Assembly (NCBI GenBank): GCA_040903985.1
Contig: JBBDUI010000002.1
Location: 326,038-390,037, forward strand
Reading direction: 5' to 3'
Length of the DNA: 64,000 nucleotides
Origin: Candidatus Saccharimonadales bacterium
GTDB lineage: Bacteria > Patescibacteriota > Saccharimonadia > QS-5-54-17
Numbering within the stretch: position 1 is the stretch's first letter; every line of letters begins with the position of its first letter. Positions 35,164-61,369 of this stretch are shown here, in pieces. Below the pieces are notes generated by a model. The model saw only the letters and a list, made by a program, of their open reading frames with translations, did not search any database and was not told the DNA's origin. The translations under genes and the position numbers were made by a program.

Positions 35164-35231
35164 ACTATTTATTCCTGTTTAAGTAAGATTGACTTATTTC
35201 ATACTTTAGCATAAGTTTGATTAAAAATCAA

Positions 35232-36590
35232 CTAGCTGTCCTGACCAATAAGAGAGGTGAGACGGCCAACTAGCTCGTCTACCTGATCTTGATCACGAGC
35301 CTCTATATTGAGACGGAGAAGCGGCTCCGTATTACTGGCTCGGACATTAAACCACTTATCTTTGTAGTTCACGCTCAGCCCGTCCAGTTCATCCTGCTCT
35401 CCATCATTAAAAGCCGTCTTAATACGCGCGATAACGGTTTCCTTATCAGCCACTTCGAAGTTAATCTCTCCCGACTGAACATAGGAAGTACGAAAACGAT
35501 TAGCCAACTCACTTAAGCTACCTCCCGCTTCGCTTAAGACGCTCATAGCCACTAAAGCGGCAATGAGCCCAGAGTCGGCCGACCAGTTATCCCGGAAATA
35601 GTAGTGCGCCGAGTGTTCACCGCCGAATGGCGCATCATACTCCCGCATGGCTGCCTTGATATAGGAATGGCCTACCTTGGTCCGGACCGGTATACCCCCA
35701 TTCTCGCGGATAGTTTGATCCACTACCCGAGAGCAGATGGCGTTATACAGAATTGTGCTGCCCGGATGCTCATCTAAAAAATGCTCGGCCAGAATAGCCG
35801 CCGTTACACTACCAGATACAGTCTGACCTGTCTCATCTATAAGCACTACCCGGTCTCCATCACCATCAAAAGCGAGGCCTAGATCTAGACCGTTCTCGAC
35901 TACTGTCCGCTTCAACACTTCCAGCGTCTCTTCTTTGAGCGGATTGGCCTCGTGATTTGGAAACGTCCCATCCAACTCAAAATAAAGCGGTGTGATCTCT
36001 AACGGCGTCTTACCAATAAGGTGCGGAATGACGGCCCCGGCCATGCCGTTACCGGCATCGACGGCGACTCGGAACGGCTTGAGCTCGCCTGTAAAGCTAA
36101 GGGCATGCTCGACCCATGCTTTCATAATGTTAGCCTCAGCTATCGTACCTGGCGAGCACTGGGGAAATTCGCCTAATTCTACCGCCCGCTTTATATCAAG
36201 CAGACCCGTATCGACCCCCACCGGGCGAGCCTCTTCGCGACAGATCTTCATACCGTTGTATTTGCCCGGGTTATGACTGGCTGTTACAACTACCCCACCA
36301 GCCGCTCGCAGGTGCCCTACCGCGAAATAGAGCATGTCACTTGCTACCAGCCCCACGCTGATCACATCTCTACCCTGTGTCTTTATGCCGGTAATAACCG
36401 CTTGAGCTAAAGCTTTCGAATCACTCCGCATATCGTGTCCGACTATCAGCGGTTGCGAGTTAGTTTCGGGGGATTTATCAGTTAAAAACTCGGCAAAAGC
36501 GCGACCGATCCGAGTGGCGACCGCTTCATTCAACTCATCGGGGACTAGACCCCGGATATCATAAGCTTTAAATATCGCATCCAGACTCAT
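35232..36590 (-). CDS. Phosphomannomutase/phosphoglucomutase (alpha-D-phosphohexomutase)
   Basis: Active-site loop VVVTASHNPGKYNGMKI. Start set at MSLDAIFKAYDIRG (36590), which has a GGAG RBS 7 nt upstream. The tracked ORF begins 13 codons earlier. Confidence 0.85.
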   Translation of the reverse strand: MSLDAIFKAYDIRGLVPDELNEAVATRIGRAFAEFLTDKSPETNSQPLIVGHDMRSDSKALAQAVITGIKTQGRDVISVGLVASDMLYFAVGHLRAAGGVVVTASHNPGKYNGMKICREEARPVGVDTGLLDIKRAVELGEFPQCSPGTIAEANIMKAWVEHALSFTGELKPFRVAVDAGNGMAGAVIPHLIGKTPLEITPLYFELDGTFPNHEANPLKEETLEVLKRTVVENGLDLGLAFDGDGDRVVLIDETGQTVSGSVTAAILAEHFLDEHPGSTILYNAICSRVVDQTIRENGGIPVRTKVGHSYIKAAMREYDAPFGGEHSAHYYFRDNWSADSGLIAALVAMSVLSEAGGSLSELANRFRTSYVQSGEINFEVADKETVIARIKTAFNDGEQDELDGLSVNYKDKWFNVRASNTEPLLRLNIEARDQDQVDELVGRLTSLIGQDS

Positions 36591-36639
36591 CGATAGCTCC
36601 TGCTTACTACATGATTGACAATACCACAATTGCTACGAT

Positions 36640-37150
36640 TAAATACTCTGGTTGGGGAAAGTCTCCAGCACCTTACCATTGGGGTAAACAGATGCAACGC
36701 CCGACAGACTCGCAATACGAGCTACACAGCACGCACAAGCTCCCGAACGGTCGGTGCAAAGTCCTTTTCCGCCACTCCGGCGGAGGGCTCAATAGCGCCA
36801 CCCTCAGGGGGCTAGCCTCGCAAGCTGACGGCAGCACCATAGCTCGAGTCGATATCGGCCCCAACCAGGGTCGGTTCGTTAAGATCTTCCTCCACGACGG
36901 AAAGAAGATCATCGACTTCGCGCCAGCCGTACCGGCTCCAGAGCCGGAGCTCGTCAAGGCCCGATAGGGCTGATACTGCGATCCTGTGACACACGTGATC
37001 ACGGGATCAACTGCGAGACTGGGGTGACTTCCCTGCGCTGACGTCGGTGTAAACCGAAATTAGCGCGCCCCACGGCCCGAGCGGATTCCTTGTTGCGGAC
37101 GCGCTGCGTCCACGAACCCAACAGGATCCGCTCGGGCCATCTCTCTTTCA
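36640..37150 (+). other. GC-rich non-coding island A (~510 bp); candidate structured RNA or foreign DNA fragment
   Basis: About 60-65% GC against ~50% background. Six-frame ORFs here overlap on both strands and lack RBSs. Many hairpins. Ends with a ~30 bp imperfect inverted repeat (37070-37135) followed by a UCUCUCUUUC tract on the plus strand. A possible promoter TTGACA-17-(a)TTAAAT lies at 36614-36646. Confidence 0.35.
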
Positions 37151-37385
37151 TTAGAACGCTAATTATGTTATAAATACATTCCTTATGAATCCTAATAGAC
37201 TCCCTGCCGACTCCACCAACGAATCCGCGCTCCAAACAGCGCGAATTGAAGGTGTACTTGAACAAACCCTCCCACCCCAGGAGGGAGACCAATCGATAGA
37301 GAATAGAGAAGCAATGCTGCGCCAAGATATTCAGAGACTTTCTCAAGTTGCAGTTAAACAGGTTACGAGCAGAACAGAAGAGTAG

Positions 37386-38510
37386 CTACAAGCTAGAGAT
37401 ACTAGAGGCAGCTAGCTCCTTTACCTCTCCTGCTACCTGGCGGCGCTCACTTTTTCCCTCGCGCAGGATATTACTTCCCTCTATCTCGTACGCCACCCGC
37501 GTGGCAACAAGTTCATGCTCAATGCTGCGCCGTAAATTATTGGAATTGGCACTTACTACCAGAACTCTCTCATCATACTGTCCGGATACCTCAGAATCTT
37601 TATAAGCCTTGAGTTGTATCGGTACGCTAACATCGTCACGACTCGCCACCGCATCAAATGCCTGATTTTTAAGCCCGTGCCGCTTGAATCCGTCATGAGG
37701 ACGGTCCTGACGCGGAAAGCTTGAAGATATATCTATATCGTCACCTTGATGAGCCTCCCAGAGCAGACGGCGAACTGCAATCTGGTAGTACTCTTCCCAC
37801 ATGAAGCCAGTAGACACACCCTCCGTTATAACAGCCTGAATCCGTCGGATCTGATTAAGCTGAGAGTGCACAAATGCCTGCTGATATTTTTTAGCACTCA
37901 TCTCTGGTTGGTGTGTTAATAAGTAGAATTCTATATCACTTAAGTACTGATGAGCCTCTTCCTTGTAGTGGGCTGACCAAGAAACGTCACTATTAACGAT
38001 GCTGCTATACACGTCGTGCGCGGATCGAAGCAATATATCTCTGACTTGAGGGTTACGGTGCTGCAGTCCCATTTCATGTATACAGCAGCCAGCAAGTAGC
38101 TTGCCTTCTGATGGTGGTCGTTCTAGTGCCTTCTCTTTTACGAACGACAGGAATTCGGTGGGGTTGTCAGGATCCTGCTTTAAGTCCTCATCACCTAGAA
38201 AGATCAATACTAATCGAGCTAGTTCACCACCGGCCTCTTCCATAGCGTTAAAGCTACCATATGACAGATATAGTTCACGAGCAGCGCCAGTTCGACTAGC
38301 GAACGGGCGCGGTGTTTCATGAACAGTGAGAACGCTATGTCTAAGCGCCTGTAGGCGATCCTGATTTACTTCACATTCCTCTCTAGCTTCCGGGTATTCA
38401 GCGGCCATTTCTGCCCAATGATTTAGATACGGTGGTAGGGCAGGGTCGATCTCAAGCCTGGTGCTATCCTCGAGTACCCTAGATTGAGATGTTTCGTACA
38501 TATTTGTCAT
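37386..38510 (-). CDS. Hypothetical protein (374 aa, acidic, no recognisable domain)
   Basis: Long ORF with no TM helices or known motifs. Confidence 0.5.
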   Translation of the reverse strand: MTNMYETSQSRVLEDSTRLEIDPALPPYLNHWAEMAAEYPEAREECEVNQDRLQALRHSVLTVHETPRPFASRTGAARELYLSYGSFNAMEEAGGELARLVLIFLGDEDLKQDPDNPTEFLSFVKEKALERPPSEGKLLAGCCIHEMGLQHRNPQVRDILLRSAHDVYSSIVNSDVSWSAHYKEEAHQYLSDIEFYLLTHQPEMSAKKYQQAFVHSQLNQIRRIQAVITEGVSTGFMWEEYYQIAVRRLLWEAHQGDDIDISSSFPRQDRPHDGFKRHGLKNQAFDAVASRDDVSVPIQLKAYKDSEVSGQYDERVLVVSANSNNLRRSIEHELVATRVAYEIEGSNILREGKSERRQVAGEVKELAASSISSL

Positions 38511-38589
38511 GTTTGTTTTTATCGTATACTAACTTTATATACATTAGCATATTATTGCTAAATAATCAACTACTTGGTCTGCTTGCAGG

Positions 38590-38990
38590 AGACTACCCCT
38601 CGTGCTTAAATAGCCGTATCACGGTGGAAATCGTGTGAACTTAGAGAAGGAGAGCGCTGCATGGACAAGGTAAACCCGTACGCTCGTAGAGCCGGTATCC
38701 ATGCCCTACGACACGGCGACGCCGGGCAAAACGGCAGCCATGGCAAAGGTGATGATGCCGGCGGGTCCAAGCCCGCCCAACACATCACCCATAACCAACC
38801 GATGGCCAATCGGCCGCAGCCATACGGCAAGTAATGGCTTCTACGTGTCGCCCCGAACGAGCTGGCCGCATGAATGTGGCACAACAGACGTTCGTTCGGG
38901 GCAGAGCTATTAGCGATGGGCTGGACTTACCTTCAGGCTGTACACTTACCCCGCCACTCTCCTTCTCGTTTCTTTTCTTTCTTTGTATTA
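38590..38990 (+). other. GC-rich non-coding island B (~350-400 bp); candidate structured RNA / long 5' leader
   Basis: GC-rich with overlapping spurious ORFs on both strands. Hairpins include GCCCCGAACGA...UCGUUCGGGGC (11 bp stem), GGCGGG-UCCAA-GCCCGCC and GCCAU...AUGGC. Ends in a pyrimidine tract CUCUCCUUCUCGUUUCUUUUCUUUCUUUG. An extended -10 candidate TGCTTAAAT lies at ~38633. Confidence 0.3.
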
Positions 38991-39077
38991 AGCCAGATCT
39001 AAATTTAATACCGACTAACCACCTTTGTCCTTGTCGGTGTTTCAGCGTATTGTAGTGGCAATACGAGGTTTACCACG

Positions 39078-39314
39078 GTGAGCATAGAGCGATTTCGACA
39101 AAAGCAACTCAGCAGCAAAGAGGCATCTGAAGCACTCGATGAAACGGATGATAACCAGAGTGAAGCTGAGCACCTAGACATCTTCCAAGAGGCTATCATG
39201 CAGGCACTGCCGGCCAGCGTTACAGTACATTTCTTAGCGGACGGAACACGCGTATTTGAGATCGAAACCAACCCCCCAGGAACTATGCTGCCAGTCGATC
39301 ATGAAACGGATTGA
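39078..39314 (+). CDS. Hypothetical small acidic protein
   Basis: 78 aa ORF immediately downstream of island B. Its 3' end overlaps the convergent gene by 32 nt. Confidence 0.3.
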   Translation: MSIERFRQKQLSSKEASEALDETDDNQSEAEHLDIFQEAIMQALPASVTVHFLADGTRVFEIETNPPGTMLPVDHETD

Positions 39315-40485
39315 GCGCTGCCTCTAAGGTCCGTTGTTCGGAAAGCTGTAAGGGTTGGTTGGCGTAGTCCTTACCCATCGCCCGAGCTGCCCCCCCAAGC
39401 ACCTCCGATAAACCAACCCCATCTTCAAAACTAAAAACTATCTTCTCGATGTCGGGCAGACACTCTGTAGTTCCGCCACCTACTTTTAACTGAATTGGGC
39501 GCGACCTAGGACTTCCACCCTCCCCTCTTTCCGTCACTATGATGTTGAAACCGTGCTTTGGTACTTGGTGCGTATTGCGCGTGCCGCCCCGATTTGATTT
39601 CTTGGTTACATGGAACCACGGCTCCTCCTCACGCGGTAGAGCGGTACGGATAAAGGAGTCCCTATGTAGGCTAGCCTGATCGATAAAGCGCCGGTAAGCC
39701 AGCACCGAGAACCACTCCAGACATAATCTGCGGGCATGAGTAGCGGTACCGTCTAGCTTTTTACGTAACTCATCCCGCTCTTGACCCTTAGCCCGCATAA
39801 GCCCCTGTCGTATCCGCTCCTCATGTTGATTCAGTTGATTTAAATAAAGTAGAAAATCGTTGATGTAGGCTATCTGTAGATCTTTATGCATCGACCGTAA
39901 CTGTTCCAGTCTGTATGTGCCCGCTTTTGTGGCATCGAACACTCGCAAAAACTGAATGTCGTAGCTATAGCGCAGAGCGTGCTGCGCGTTAACACCGATT
40001 AGATCATCCTTCTCCTGATCTAGAACTCCCTGATACTGAGCTAAAGCCCGGCTCAACATCGAGGCCCGGAAACTACCGTCACTAACGAGCGCCGACTCTT
40101 CGAATAGACACCCGCTCAGCAGCTGGTCATGTGTCGCATACTCCCCACGTTCAGTGCTGGCTTCAGCTCTACGCTGCAGGATCAGTCCGGCCTCGGCTAG
40201 AATCTCGTTAGCTCCAACTAGCTGATTCAAACTACCTAAACGGTAGTAAAAGTTCTTTGCTTCAGTTGAAGAATCTCTACCTGCCTGATCCCAAGTATCA
40301 CCAACGACACCCTCCATACGCTTACTACACTTGTCAGTGGAGCGAGCGATATCCTCGATATCTTTATTACTTTTTATCATCTTAGGATGGCCACTGATGA
40401 AATCTGACCAATAGTCTCGATATGATGAAGCGGCCTCAGAGGCCGCTTCATCATATCCTTCGCTCAACTTTTCGCTAGATTGCAT
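39283..40485 (-). CDS. Hypothetical protein (400 aa, no recognisable domain)
   Basis: Long soluble ORF with no TM helices or known motifs. Confidence 0.5.
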   Translation of the reverse strand: MQSSEKLSEGYDEAASEAASSYRDYWSDFISGHPKMIKSNKDIEDIARSTDKCSKRMEGVVGDTWDQAGRDSSTEAKNFYYRLGSLNQLVGANEILAEAGLILQRRAEASTERGEYATHDQLLSGCLFEESALVSDGSFRASMLSRALAQYQGVLDQEKDDLIGVNAQHALRYSYDIQFLRVFDATKAGTYRLEQLRSMHKDLQIAYINDFLLYLNQLNQHEERIRQGLMRAKGQERDELRKKLDGTATHARRLCLEWFSVLAYRRFIDQASLHRDSFIRTALPREEEPWFHVTKKSNRGGTRNTHQVPKHGFNIIVTERGEGGSPRSRPIQLKVGGGTTECLPDIEKIVFSFEDGVGLSEVLGGAARAMGKDYANQPLQLSEQRTLEAALNPFHDRLAA

Positions 40486-51086: not shown

Positions 51087-51179
51087 GGAGAGGTACCCAA
51101 GAGGCTGAAGGGGCTGGTTTGCTAAACCGGTAGGGGGGAGCAATCCCCCGCGAGGGTTCGAATCCCTCCCTCTCCGCCA
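51087..51179 (+). tRNA. tRNA-Ser (anticodon GCT), CCA encoded
   Basis: GGAGAGGUACCCAAGAGGCUGAAGGGG-CUGGU-UUGCUAA-ACCGG... long variable arm ...GAGGGUUCGAAUCCCUC-CCUCUCC-G-CCA. Confidence 0.85.
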
Positions 51180-51188
51180 AAGAAAAAT

Positions 51189-51216
51189 CCTTGCATGAAT
51201 GCAGGGGTTTTTCTTT
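51189..51216 (+). terminator. Intrinsic terminator after tRNA-Ser(GCT)
   Basis: CCUUGCA-UGAA-UGCAGGG(G) followed by UUUUUCUUU. Confidence 0.65.
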
Positions 51217-51367
51217 GGTATAGGGAAGCAAATGAATAGTTTCAGTTGCGAGGGATTCGAGCAGGCGGAGCGATGTCTAAGTTTACCCTGCCAACGGCAG
51301 GGTAAGGCGAAGACCGCGAGCCATGCCGACGAGAAAATTCCGTCAGGAGTTTTACTCGTGGGGCGAT

Positions 51368-51383
51368 AACCCTCCCTCTCCGC
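51368..51383 (+). repeat. 16-nt direct copy of the tRNA-Ser(GCT) 3' end (CCCTCCCTCTCCGCCA)
   Basis: Exact match to 51164-51179, 189 bp downstream in the same orientation. Followed by GGAGAG, which can pair back on it. Confidence 0.5.
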
Positions 51384-51447
51384 CAGGAGAGTGTATCCGA
51401 GCTGTAAGCTCGGGTATAGTCTCCTGGACTGGGACTCGAACCTAAAT

Positions 51448-52119
51448 CTAATGTTTCGCTACCACCACCGCATCCACTCGTTTCGCGCCGCCCGCCCGCA
51501 AAAGTCGGGCGCATTCGTTTAGAGTGGCTCCAGTCGTCACCACGTCATCAACTAGCAGTACGCGTAGGCCTTTGACTCGGTCTGTACTCCGCAGCTTAAT
51601 GCTGCCCCTCACTTGGATTAAGCGCTGCTTGCGATCGGCACCGACCTGACGCAATCTACCCGCCTTATATCCCGTCTCGATGCAGGGTAGATCCATTAGA
51701 CGGGCTAATGCCCTAGCCAACTCTGCCGCCTGATTATAGCCCCGACGGCGAAAGCTGCGTGCAGTAGTTGGAGCCCAGGTAATCACATCGTAGCTCTGCT
51801 CCAGACTCACTAATTTAGTCGCTAGCAGTCGCGCCAAGGGAGTAGTCGCGTCTATACCGTTCTCGTACTTAAGGTAGCGAATCAGTTCCTTCACTAGACC
51901 GTCGTACTGGCTGGCCACCACCACCCGATAGAGCTGACTCTGCTTGCGGCAGCGGCTACAGGTACGAAAGCTCGGGCTGAGACGGTTACAGTTATAGCAG
52001 GTCTCTGCTCGGGGATTATCGAGATAGGGAAGGCAGTCGCGACATACCAGCTCACCGGTCGCACCGCAGCGACGGCAGGTGTGAGGCGCTATCAGTTTGA
52101 GGATTTGCTTGAAAAACAT
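51448..52119 (-). CDS. ComF family protein (competence protein ComFC-like, phosphoribosyltransferase domain)
   Basis: N-terminal Cys-rich zinc region CRRCG...CRDC...CYNC...CSRC. C-terminal PRTase motif VLLVDDVVTTGATLNE. Confidence 0.75.
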   Translation of the reverse strand: MFFKQILKLIAPHTCRRCGATGELVCRDCLPYLDNPRAETCYNCNRLSPSFRTCSRCRKQSQLYRVVVASQYDGLVKELIRYLKYENGIDATTPLARLLATKLVSLEQSYDVITWAPTTARSFRRRGYNQAAELARALARLMDLPCIETGYKAGRLRQVGADRKQRLIQVRGSIKLRSTDRVKGLRVLLVDDVVTTGATLNECARLLRAGGAKRVDAVVVAKH

Positions 52120-52774: not shown

Positions 52775-53122
52775 CTAAGTGGCGTTACCCTGGCTCAGCT
52801 GATCGATCACAAAGTCGACGGCAGCCCAGGATAGGAAGGCGACGATGATACCGATGATGGCGTAGAGAATAGTATTCTTAGCTCCTTCAACGGCACTGGA
52901 ATCACCTCCGGATACTACGTAGCGGAAACCACCGATGATTAGCATGATGACGGCGATGGCACCGAGTAGAGAAAGAAGGGTGTTAGCGATCGACTCAAAC
53001 ACCCCACCCGAACCGAATAAGCTATCGGCTACACCGCTGGGTTTAGTCGCATTAACCCCCCGCTCCAGGCTAGACTGAGCCACAGTATTAATAGCGCTTT
53101 GCAATATGCTGAGTTTATCCAT
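52775..53122 (-). CDS. VirB2/TrbC-like T4SS pilin-family paralog 1 (no signal peptide; possible silent/cassette copy)
   Basis: C-terminal 57 aa LGAIAVIMLIIGGFRYVVSGGDSSAVEGAKNTILYAIIGIIVAFLSWAAVDFVIDQL are identical to paralog 2. The N-terminus is hydrophilic. No RBS within 15 nt of the ATG. Confidence 0.6.
   Translation of the reverse strand: MDKLSILQSAINTVAQSSLERGVNATKPSGVADSLFGSGGVFESIANTLLSLLGAIAVIMLIIGGFRYVVSGGDSSAVEGAKNTILYAIIGIIVAFLSWAAVDFVIDQLSQGNAT
52798..52970 (-). repeat. 173-bp exact direct repeat shared by pilin paralogs 1 and 2 (second copy at 53274-53446)
   Basis: Identical nucleotide sequence at an offset of 476 bp. Encodes the conserved C-terminal double-TM hairpin. Confidence 0.8.
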
Positions 53123-53224
53123 AGTCTATGAGCCGAACTGTACGCCCGGCCGCTCCCTAGTTAATGATTAGCGAATTAACTATATTATACAATAAATTGT
53201 GCTTCATACAAAGAGTAACCGACC

Positions 53225-53254
53225 CTGGGTCGGGTCGGTTACTGACTAGCCTGG
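53225..53254 (-). terminator. Hairpin terminator after pilin paralog 2
   Basis: AGUAACCGACCC-UGGGUC-GGGUCGGUUACU, a 12 bp stem just downstream of the paralog 2 stop on the minus strand. Confidence 0.5.
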
Positions 53255-53266
53255 TAGACCAGATTC

Positions 53267-53650
53267 TTACTGAAGCTGATCGATCACAAAGTCGACGGCA
53301 GCCCAGGATAGGAAGGCGACGATGATACCGATGATGGCGTAGAGAATAGTATTCTTAGCTCCTTCAACGGCACTGGAATCACCTCCGGATACTACGTAGC
53401 GGAAACCACCGATGATTAGCATGATGACGGCGATGGCACCGAGTAGAAGGAGTAGGATGTTAGCGACTGTCTGGAAGACTCCACCGGCCTCAAACAAGGA
53501 ACTAGCTGTTCCTTCAGGCTTAACATCATTCAACTTATCGCCACCCAACTGGGCAAAGGCACTAGATGGTGTTAGTACGGCGGTAAAGAATATTGCCGCT
53601 TCTAGCAGCTTACGCTGAACGCCTTTCGAGATAGTTTGTAATTTTTTCAC
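53267..53650 (-). CDS. VirB2/TrbC-like T4SS pilin-family paralog 2 (likely major expressed copy)
   Basis: GTG start with GGAGG RBS 8 nt upstream. Own -10 TATAAT at ~53697-53702 on the minus strand. Signal peptide ending AFA-QL, variable region, then the conserved double-TM C-terminus. Confidence 0.7.
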   Translation of the reverse strand: MKKLQTISKGVQRKLLEAAIFFTAVLTPSSAFAQLGGDKLNDVKPEGTASSLFEAGGVFQTVANILLLLLGAIAVIMLIIGGFRYVVSGGDSSAVEGAKNTILYAIIGIIVAFLSWAAVDFVIDQLQ

Positions 53651-53733
53651 TTAAATTCTCCTCTTATTAGATATTCTGTTTCGATGACTTATGCTGAAAT
53701 TATAGCATAATTGCAGACATTCAAAAATCTTAA

Positions 53734-54207
53734 CTATCGGGGTCTAGAAGTTCCACCTGCACCACTATTCTCACTCTGCGACTGAGTCGTTGTTCCGCTA
53801 TTAGCTAGCTGATCGATCACAAAGTCGACGGCAGCCCAAGATAGGAAGGCGACGATAATGCCAACGATAGCGTAGAGAATGGTGTTGCGTGCGCCCTGGA
53901 CGGCATTCGAATCACCCCCAGAGACGACGAAGCGAAAGGCCCCAATTACTAGCATGATAACCGCTACCGCCCCCAGCACGAGAAGGAGTACATCGATAAC
54001 CGTCTTCACCGTATCGATCAGCTCTGGGCTATCGCCACCCATACTACACTCACTACCAGTCCAGCTACCACCGGCACCGATACAGGCCGACTCCTGCGCC
54101 GTCTGGGCATAAACCACATTCACGGTGCCTACGGTGCCGAACGCGAGCACACCCGCTACTACGATTAACATGCTAGATAGTATTTTTCTCATCCTGTCCC
54201 TTATCAT
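53734..54207 (-). CDS. VirB2/TrbC-like T4SS pilin-family paralog 3
   Basis: Signal peptide, Cys-containing variable region (ACIGAGGSWTGSECS), and conserved C-terminus LGAVAVIMLVIGAFRFVVSGGDSNAVQGARNTILYAIVGIIVAFLSWAAVDFVIDQL with a Gly/Ser/Thr-rich tail. Confidence 0.65.
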   Translation of the reverse strand: MIRDRMRKILSSMLIVVAGVLAFGTVGTVNVVYAQTAQESACIGAGGSWTGSECSMGGDSPELIDTVKTVIDVLLLVLGAVAVIMLVIGAFRFVVSGGDSNAVQGARNTILYAIVGIIVAFLSWAAVDFVIDQLANSGTTTQSQSENSGAGGTSRPR

Positions 54208-60497: not shown

Positions 60498-61369
60498 TGC
60501 CACCGAACAACACGCCCAACCAGCCCCAATCACCGGCTACACCCGAACCGGCTCCAGCTACCCCTCAGACTCAGATCAACCCCAGCGCTGCACCCTTAGG
60601 TCCGCCGCCACGCTCGATGCCTAAAACCGCTAAGCCAGCGGTTAAAAAGAAGTCTGACAATACCGCTCAGAAGAGTCTACTTATCTCTGAGATCCGGGAC
60701 GGCATGGTAGTGATGAAGGACGGCTCGATGCGAGCGGTCGTGATGTGCCAATCAATCAACTTCGACCTAATGAGCCCACAGGAAAGGGAAGGGATAGAGT
60801 ACTCCTACCAGGGCTTCTTAAACTCACTCTACTTCCCAGTCCAGATACTAATCCGAAGCCAGCATATTAACCTCGACGGCTACATGGAGCGATTAGAAGC
60901 AATCAGACGAGACCAGGACAACATTCTGCTCGGACTGCTGATGGAAGATTACATCACCTACGTACGTTATCTGGTAGAAGCGGCCAACATTATGGACAAG
61001 CAGTTCTACATCGTGGTGCCTTACTACCCTAATATGCTGAACAAAGAGGGGATAGCCAGCGGCGCCCAGAAGTTCTCCGAACTCTTCAAACCGAAACAAG
61101 AAGGAGTAATCACTATTAACGAGACCGACTTCACCAAGGCTAAGCAGGAGTTGACGCAGCAGGTCCGGGTGGTAGCTAACGGCCTAAACCAACTAGGGGT
61201 TAAATCCATACCCCTAAACACCCAGGAGTTAATCGAGCTTTACTATAACGTCTACAATCCAGTCACTGCTAAACAGCAGCCGCTAACTGACGTCGGTGAC
61301 CTAGATGCATCGATCATCGGTAAGGGTGACGGCCAAGCAAAACAGGTATTCCCAGGGGGCGGGGCATAG
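60497..61369 (+). CDS. VirB4/TraC N-terminal-domain protein (Pro-rich leader plus CagE_TrbE_VirB-like domain); possibly the 5' part of a split virB4
   Basis: LLISEIRDGMVVMKDGSMRAVVMCQSINFDLMSPQEREGIEYSYQGFLNSL matches the conserved VirB4 N-terminal block (kdGs...G.dfe...see). The ORF ends with TAG 1 nt before the ATG of the ATPase ORF, at a G-run. Confidence 0.55.
   Translation: MPPNNTPNQPQSPATPEPAPATPQTQINPSAAPLGPPPRSMPKTAKPAVKKKSDNTAQKSLLISEIRDGMVVMKDGSMRAVVMCQSINFDLMSPQEREGIEYSYQGFLNSLYFPVQILIRSQHINLDGYMERLEAIRRDQDNILLGLLMEDYITYVRYLVEAANIMDKQFYIVVPYYPNMLNKEGIASGAQKFSELFKPKQEGVITINETDFTKAKQELTQQVRVVANGLNQLGVKSIPLNTQELIELYYNVYNPVTAKQQPLTDVGDLDASIIGKGDGQAKQVFPGGGA

Follow-up and report, generated by a model that had tools for sequence, protein, structure and literature searches.

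A GC-rich stretch dense in potential hairpins, here called island B, lies between two genes without a family match in the DNA of a Candidatus Saccharimonadales MAG, and the question is what kind of element it is. We analyzed it within a window of 64 kb, which belongs to a parent contig of 747 kb. We tentatively propose that island B is a plus-strand unit of its own, an orphan small protein gene whose mRNA folds back on itself.

Position and structure of island B

Island B sits in a 772-bp gap that separates two minus-strand genes, one of 374 aa (37386-38510, NCBI WD467_01895) and one of 400 aa (39283-40485, NCBI WD467_01910). Convergent with the 400-aa gene, and overlapping its end, is a plus-strand ORF of 78 aa, ORF78 (39078-39314). 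Its acidic product (pI 4.3) and its place downstream of the island on the same strand agree with the earlier note. ORF78 is conserved, has a codon score of 0.268 and is not part of the island. The GC-rich core occupies a divergent region: the 374-aa gene starts on one side of it (38510, minus strand) and ORF78 on the other (39078, plus strand), and the two starts are 567 bp apart in the window. On its left, the island is limited by the palindrome TTAGCA-N6-TGCTAA (38544-38561, minus strand), which belongs to the conserved promoter region of the 374-aa gene and lies outside the island.

The earlier note had described a GC-rich, hairpin-dense island here, and its position held to within a base or two. 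The GC content of 38640-38970 is 0.589, compared with 0.508 for the window, and stands at the 98.8th percentile among 331-nt windows. Island B is structured far beyond chance. With 200 dinucleotide shuffles, the plus strand of 38640-38972 had a folding z-score of -6.3 and the minus strand one of -5.4. Windows of 340 nt throughout the 64 kb gave a mean z of -0.5 (sd 1.6), a grid scan relative to which the island's z-score is flattered because the island limits were picked after inspecting the fold. ORF78, the adjoining real gene, had a folding z of +0.9.

The hairpins named in the earlier note were all found, each on the plus strand. An 11-bp perfect stem, GCCCCGAACGA / TCGTTCGGGGC (38850-38860 / 38892-38902), encloses a loop of 31 nt. 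Together with its extension it forms the strongest local hairpin (38846-38916; z = -5.1 on the plus strand and -4.2 on the minus strand, 200 shuffles), which lies in the 3' untranslated part of the unit proposed below. The motif GGCGGG-TCCAA-GCCCGCC (38760-38777) is part of a larger hairpin, GGUGAUGAUGCC-GGCGGG-UCCAA-GCCCGCC-...-CAUCACC (38748-38789), which lies within a small ORF, ORF57, and is the source of a sub-threshold fluoride riboswitch match. A further hairpin, GCCAU...AUGGC (38819-38838), spans the ORF57 stop codon. The long pyrimidine tract is present as well: it measures 29 nt (38957-38985, plus strand) and consists of the arm CUCUCCUUCUC (38957-38967) and a U-rich tail (38968-38985).

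The absolute fold energy is lower on the minus strand (-158.3 kcal/mol) than on the plus strand (-143.9 kcal/mol), and the minus-strand fold has 19 G-U pairs among its 124 pairs, compared with 5 in the plus-strand fold. We discounted this lower energy because shuffles of the G+U-richer minus-strand sequence also fold better. After correction for composition, z was equal or better on the plus strand, both for the whole island and for its inner segments. The corrected z-scores, together with a promoter-like site, a ribosome-binding site and an ORF, make the plus strand the better candidate.

A probable small gene in the left half of the island

The island had been thought to hold no credible ORF, which was not borne out. 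ORF57 (38661-38834, plus strand, 57 aa) was called by two pipelines, Logan's gene caller and NCBI, and is already annotated by the latter as hypothetical protein WD467_01900. Its ribosome-binding site is canonical, with the Shine-Dalgarno core AAGGAG at 38647-38652, 8 nt before the ATG. The same AAGGAG is found 4-10 nt ahead of the start in GroES, GroEL and other real genes of the window.

Codon usage was scored with a model trained on the window's 28 ORFs of 250 aa or more. ORF57 had a codon log-likelihood of 0.192, compared with 0.256 +/- 0.12 for 57-codon pieces of true genes, and only 1 of 103 spurious ORFs of the same size scored as high. An ORF of 50 codons or more is in itself expected, being present in 82% of 3000 dinucleotide shuffles of the island. 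An ORF that matched the codon score of ORF57 was present in 3 of the 3000, none of them with a ribosome-binding site. The GC contents at the three codon positions of ORF57 (0.68/0.49/0.67) have the same shape as those of real genes (0.61/0.41/0.54). The gene-like codon usage and the ribosome-binding site are seen directly in the DNA. The scores of the island's other ORFs and frames are those of spurious ORFs, and the coding signal does not continue past the ORF57 stop codon. ORF57 spans about half of the island only, and none of the frames stays open throughout.

The ORF57 product would be basic and hydrophilic, with a pI of 10.0, a GRAVY of -1.31 and a maximum 19-residue hydropathy of -0.59. 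It is of low complexity and is predicted to be disordered; the AF2 model is mostly coil with one short helix. No homologue of ORF57 was found among 5.8 billion proteins or in viral contigs, and no paralogue was found in the protein collection, which includes the NCBI annotation of this MAG.

Upstream of ORF57, at 38583-38611 on the plus strand, there is a promoter-like site consisting of TTGCAG, a 17-nt spacer and TG-c-TTAAAT. Its extended -10 candidate, TGCTTAAAT (38603-38611), is the one that the earlier note had pointed out. The site is a consensus match only, with a weak -35 (3/6) and without the A at -11. It stands 49 nt upstream of ORF57, and its predicted transcription start is near 38618. 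The relaxed pattern TTGNNN-N13-15-TGnTnnAnT had 10 matches in the window compared with 5.9 expected and is not itself enriched; several of these matches precede real genes by 20-50 nt. No intrinsic terminator was called.

A predicted long-range helix that includes the ribosome-binding site

The earlier note missed one feature of the island. An 11-bp long-range helix (38644-38654 / 38957-38967) closes the core into one multi-branched domain, and does so on either strand. Its 5' arm (38644-38654, plus strand) contains the Shine-Dalgarno core of ORF57, and its 3' arm is the CUCUCCUUCUC part of the pyrimidine tract. The 11-nt inverted repeat behind the helix was equalled in 2 of 500 shuffles. In the DNA, the repeat stops at exactly 11 bp.

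To predict the pairing, we used a model transcript of the plus strand that begins at the predicted start (38619) and runs through the U-rich tract to 38986. In this transcript, the ribosome-binding site (38646-54) is predicted to pair with 38957-65 with a probability of 0.97-1.00. When the transcript was ended at 38950, 38920 or 38840, the ribosome-binding site became mostly unpaired, with a mean unpaired probability of 0.47-0.66.

These predictions suggest how the element could work. The promoter-like site at 38583-38611 would drive a plus-strand unit with a leader of about 40 nt and a strong Shine-Dalgarno sequence. The unit would continue with ORF57 (38661-38834) and then with a structured 3' region ending in the U-rich pyrimidine tract, so that the hairpins would be mRNA structure. 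In the complete transcript, the 3' CUCUCCUUCUC would pair with the ribosome-binding site and produce a compact multi-hairpin fold. The finished mRNA would then be poorly translatable and probably stable. Translation would take place only during transcription, or once the 3' end had been removed or opened, which is the logic of fold-back inhibition. Fold-back is the most likely way for the element to work, as judged from thermodynamic prediction on one sequence. Transcription from the promoter-like site, production of the ORF57 protein and regulation by the pairing are the three parts of this scheme that we infer.

Island B is absent from the syntenic relatives

Gene order around the island is conserved: Mur ligase, the 400-aa family, an antisense small acidic ORF, the 374-aa family, small antisense ORFs, phosphomannomutase and GroES/EL. 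The order Mur ligase, 400-aa gene and antisense small acidic ORF is kept in five relatives (L003, L005, L007, L009 and L042), four of which also keep a 374-aa-like gene (all but L007). ORF78 aligns with ORFs of 76-87 aa at the same position and in the same orientation in L005, L007 and L009; the 76-aa ORF of L007 (L007_76) matches it at E = 8.7e-4.

Comparison with related genomes had been proposed in the earlier note as a check, and it gave no sign of conservation, a lack that the note had listed among its refuting outcomes: the loci of the five syntenic relatives contain no trace of island B. In L005, L009 and L042, only 145-230 bp of AT-rich DNA separate the acidic ORF from the 374-aa-like gene. 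In L003 the two large genes are just 292 bp apart, and in L007 there are 98 bp from the acidic ORF to another small ORF. Alignment with relatives (L003/L009) is confined to the 60-130 nt or so that adjoin the 374-aa gene and hold the TTAGCA palindrome. The GC-rich core is an insertion of about 330-370 bp specific to this lineage. The only second assembly that we found, a Logan assembly, is identical to the window along 9.1 kb.

At the positions of the islands, relatives have different small ORFs, most of which are acidic. Elsewhere in the locus, a protein with Mtd_N and beta-helix domains is encoded between TsaD and the Mur ligase in one relative (L007 2567-3748 / L008 3389-4570). Proteins with these domains are of a type found among the targets of diversity-generating retroelements. 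The corresponding position in the window is occupied by an unrelated 248-aa protein of unknown type.

Searches for homologues of the island

Searches with the DNA of island B gave no second copy elsewhere in the 64-kb window, and blastn against phage and plasmid collections gave nothing. A pattern scan for the terminal repeat in collections of genome contigs and viral contigs returned only unrelated chance matches. A scan of metagenome contigs for the 11-bp hairpin stem found the same stem only in unrelated hairpins. No transposase is encoded near island B. There is no target-site duplication, and the flanks have no common direct repeat of 4 nt or more.

A protein-coding match, which the earlier note had listed as a possible refutation, did not appear in the protein searches. 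Pfam had no match in any of the six frames of the island. The longest open frame, of 106 codons on the minus strand, gave only two low-complexity matches when it was compared by phmmer with 1.84 billion proteins. A pseudogene or gene fragment was rejected on the same Pfam result and on the lack of a frame open across the island. Tblastx matched the island to the antisense of Mur-ligase genes of relatives (E = 0.04-0.2); we dismissed these matches, which were absent against the window's own Mur ligase.

Several other identities were tried and rejected. A guide RNA of the TnpB/IscB-like kind, in which the 374-aa or 400-aa protein would be followed by a structured RNA, was rejected because these proteins match no protein family and keep their position in relatives without islands, and because the AF2 model has no Foldseek match. 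Retrons, diversity-generating retroelements and integron attC sites were rejected as well, because reverse transcriptase, integrase and matching repeats are all absent. Island A, another structured stretch of the window (36630-37385), is not a second member of the same family, as islands A and B have no sequence similarity on either strand.

Known RNA families and the leader of ORF78

The Rfam check proposed in the earlier note returned, at gathering thresholds, only five tRNAs elsewhere in the window and no family in the island, so no known RNA family stands against the earlier reading. We also searched 4 kb and 601 nt under a relaxed limit (E <= 10). The only notable match, to the fluoride riboswitch (RF01734; 38739-38850, plus strand), scored 19.6 bits compared with a gathering score of 34. 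Its E-value was 0.006 in the 601-nt search and 0.038 in the 4-kb search; extrapolated to the whole window, it would be about 0.6. The likeness to the fluoride riboswitch (crcB motif) is local sequence, GGUGAUGAUG...CACC-CAUAACC...UAAUGGCUUCUAC. The match requires insertions of 28 nt and 35 nt and does not have the compact fold of about 52-64 nt. The nucleotides GAUGAUG and AUGGCU, which belong to the pseudoknot loop, are paired in local hairpins of the predicted fold. A fluoride riboswitch is expected in the leader of a crcB/eriC-F-type gene, whereas this match lies inside ORF57, and the next gene encodes the 78-aa acidic protein, which has no family match and is not fluoride-related. The resemblance to cobalamin riboswitches, already called unconvincing in the earlier note, found no counterpart in the models: RF00174 and its variants had no match even at E <= 10 in the 601-nt and 4-kb searches.

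We consider it very improbable that the island is a long structured 5' leader or riboswitch controlling ORF78, as had been suggested. The island does lie upstream of ORF78 on the same strand, and the fluoride match falls on that strand too. However, that match is below threshold and is weakened by its two large insertions, by its place in ORF57 and by the pairing of nucleotides that should be free; ORF78 is no fluoride-related gene, and cobalamin models gave nothing. In four relatives, the homologues of ORF78 have short AT-rich upstream DNA from which the island is absent. Because the core is a lineage-specific insertion, it cannot be a conserved ORF78 leader. ORF78 also has a promoter-like site of its own, TTGTCC-17-TATTGT (39025-39053), read from the sequence.

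An RNase P-like reading was prompted by eye: GAAGGUAAGUCCAGCC on the minus strand resembles a P4 strand and can pair with GGGUUUACCUU. It was rejected, as no RNase P or other Rfam model matched at E <= 10, the pairing is in another register and relatives lack the island.

Comparison with known systems and other explanations

In the hok and aapA mRNAs, a 5'-3' long-distance interaction is established as a means of sequestering the Shine-Dalgarno sequence, and the full-length toxin mRNAs of these systems are silent until their 3' end is trimmed (PMC6733600, PMC5416894). Like hok/sok of plasmid R1 and aapA/IsoA of Helicobacter pylori, which have an ORF of about 30-60 codons in a structured mRNA of about 200-400 nt, island B is a small, lineage-specific, intergenic module. 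In the modelled transcript its 5'-3' pairing likewise hides the ribosome-binding site, and the form shortened at the 3' end is predicted to be open. The protein is of a different kind: toxins of the hok/aapA type are hydrophobic membrane peptides, whereas ORF57 is hydrophilic, basic and predicted to be disordered. No antisense promoter-like site was called or seen by eye on the minus strand of the island, and the island is single-copy in the 64-kb window and has no homologues. By this comparison, island B is a mechanistic analogue only of the hok/aapA type I systems and not a member of them.

In its host-like translation signals and codon usage, its lack of homologues and its variable locus among small opposite-strand ORFs, ORF57 resembles the orphan small genes of CPR bacteria and Saccharibacteria. 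It differs from them in an unusually structured mRNA (z about -6) and in a GC content above that of host genes.

Could the island instead be an independent orphan structured ncRNA of about 330 nt, encoded on either strand, with ORF57 present by chance? The very strong closed structure, which is multi-branched rather than a simple rod, would suit such an RNA, and so would the enrichment in GC relative to the genome, a usual feature of structural RNAs. ORF57 is an orphan and its product is predicted to be disordered, and a minus-strand RNA would fit the lower free energy and the 19 G-U pairs of the 124-pair fold. We nevertheless regard this explanation as unlikely. The codon usage of ORF57 combined with its ribosome-binding site is very improbable by chance, neither a promoter nor a terminator for a minus-strand RNA was called, and once composition is controlled the z-scores do not favour that strand. 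Neither an Rfam family nor a homologue by any route was found, and all five syntenic relatives lack the island. For the left half of the island, a small gene is better supported than an independent ncRNA. An inert relic, be it a fragment gained by horizontal transfer or the decayed remains of a fold-back or miniature mobile element whose terminal inverted repeats are 11 bp long, would account for a lineage-specific insertion at a locus that varies among relatives, for GC above that of the host genome and for a sequence that is an orphan in both DNA and protein. The comparison with MITEs is apt in part: they too are short (about 330 bp here), non-autonomous-looking insertions with terminal inverted repeats, perfect in this case, and strong fold-back potential. 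However, the repeat of the island stops at only 11 bp and no target-site duplication accompanies it. The fold is multi-branched and not rod-like, neither a further copy in the 64-kb window nor an ORF57 paralogue in the protein collection was found, and no transposase is nearby. Random or decaying DNA also fails to explain a z of about -6 together with gene-like codons and a well-placed ribosome-binding site, and a relic is for us an improbable explanation.

An orphan small gene with a fold-back mRNA remains the reading that we prefer. A bolder version, to which we give little credence, is that the island is a recently acquired self-contained module encoding a basic protein silenced by fold-back (type-I-toxin-like or an otherwise gated, non-membrane effector, possibly acting with ORF78), or else a new orphan RNA of about 330 nt. 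If true, such a fold-back-gated module or orphan RNA would be the first of its kind described in this phylum. Long-distance sequestration of ribosome-binding sites is known mainly from toxin mRNAs of Proteobacteria. If the fold-back is real, long-distance sequestration would occur also in reduced CPR genomes, and on a different type of protein. The locus also calls for caution, in that GC-rich hairpin islands between uncharacterized genes of such genomes can be orphan small genes with structured mRNAs and not riboswitches or ncRNAs. As the case is a single-genome orphan, its wider importance is limited.

The flanking gene family and other features of the window

The 374-aa and 400-aa proteins are distant paralogues that share the motifs PRE(E/D)xP, (K)HGF and PIQLK. 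A 394-aa protein of L009 matches both of them, at E = 4.6e-22 and 8.7e-6, respectively. Their relatives are few, with 43-56% identity, and the family is confined to a few Saccharimonadales. Neither protein has a family match in Pfam, NCBIfam, PADLOC or PHROGs, and the AF2 model is helical, of low confidence and without a Foldseek match. Each copy of the family has companion small ORFs on the other strand, most of them acidic. Within its 5' part, the 400-aa gene contains a perfect 19-bp palindrome with a 1-nt spacer (40419-40457), where the local folding z is about -6.7.

Upstream of the 374-aa gene, the TTAGCA palindrome forms part of an operator- or promoter-like sequence, TTGATT...TTAGCA-N6-TGCTAA. 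A similar sequence is found upstream of a 153-aa gene (35201-35234), and a sequence of this type is kept upstream of the 374-aa homologues in L003 and L009. The sites at 38544-38561 and 35203-35231 may be bound by a shared regulator.

Island A, too, has strong structure (plus strand, z = -6.6; minus strand, z = -4.3). It contains a 118-aa ORF (36611-36967, plus strand) with gene-like codon usage, equalled in 0 of 2000 shuffles. This ORF has no ribosome-binding site and no homologue in the loci of relatives. The 3' half of island A holds a hairpin of about 26 bp near 37067-37135. It appears that islands A and B are both small genes specific to this lineage and are encoded on the other strand from the paralogous pair.

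Three other stretches of the window are unusual. The region 60498-61304 comprises 807 nt without an ORF of 70 aa or more and without an Rfam match. The most structured stretch of the window is 51175-51520 (plus strand, z = -9.1), where a 20-bp terminator-like hairpin directly after tRNA-Ser(GCT) is followed by a tRNA-like piece and then by a strong hairpin. The tRNA-like piece was called by neither ARAGORN nor Rfam, and its last 18 nt or so (51368-51385) repeat the 3' end of tRNA-Ser(GCT). This stretch may be an att-type partial tRNA duplication from an integrative element, or an unusual tRNA-like gene. Finally, 52797-54031 holds three direct copies of a 225-nt unit, 477-533 nt apart and 92% and 67% identical to the reference copy, which are probably repeated protein domains or duplicated small genes.
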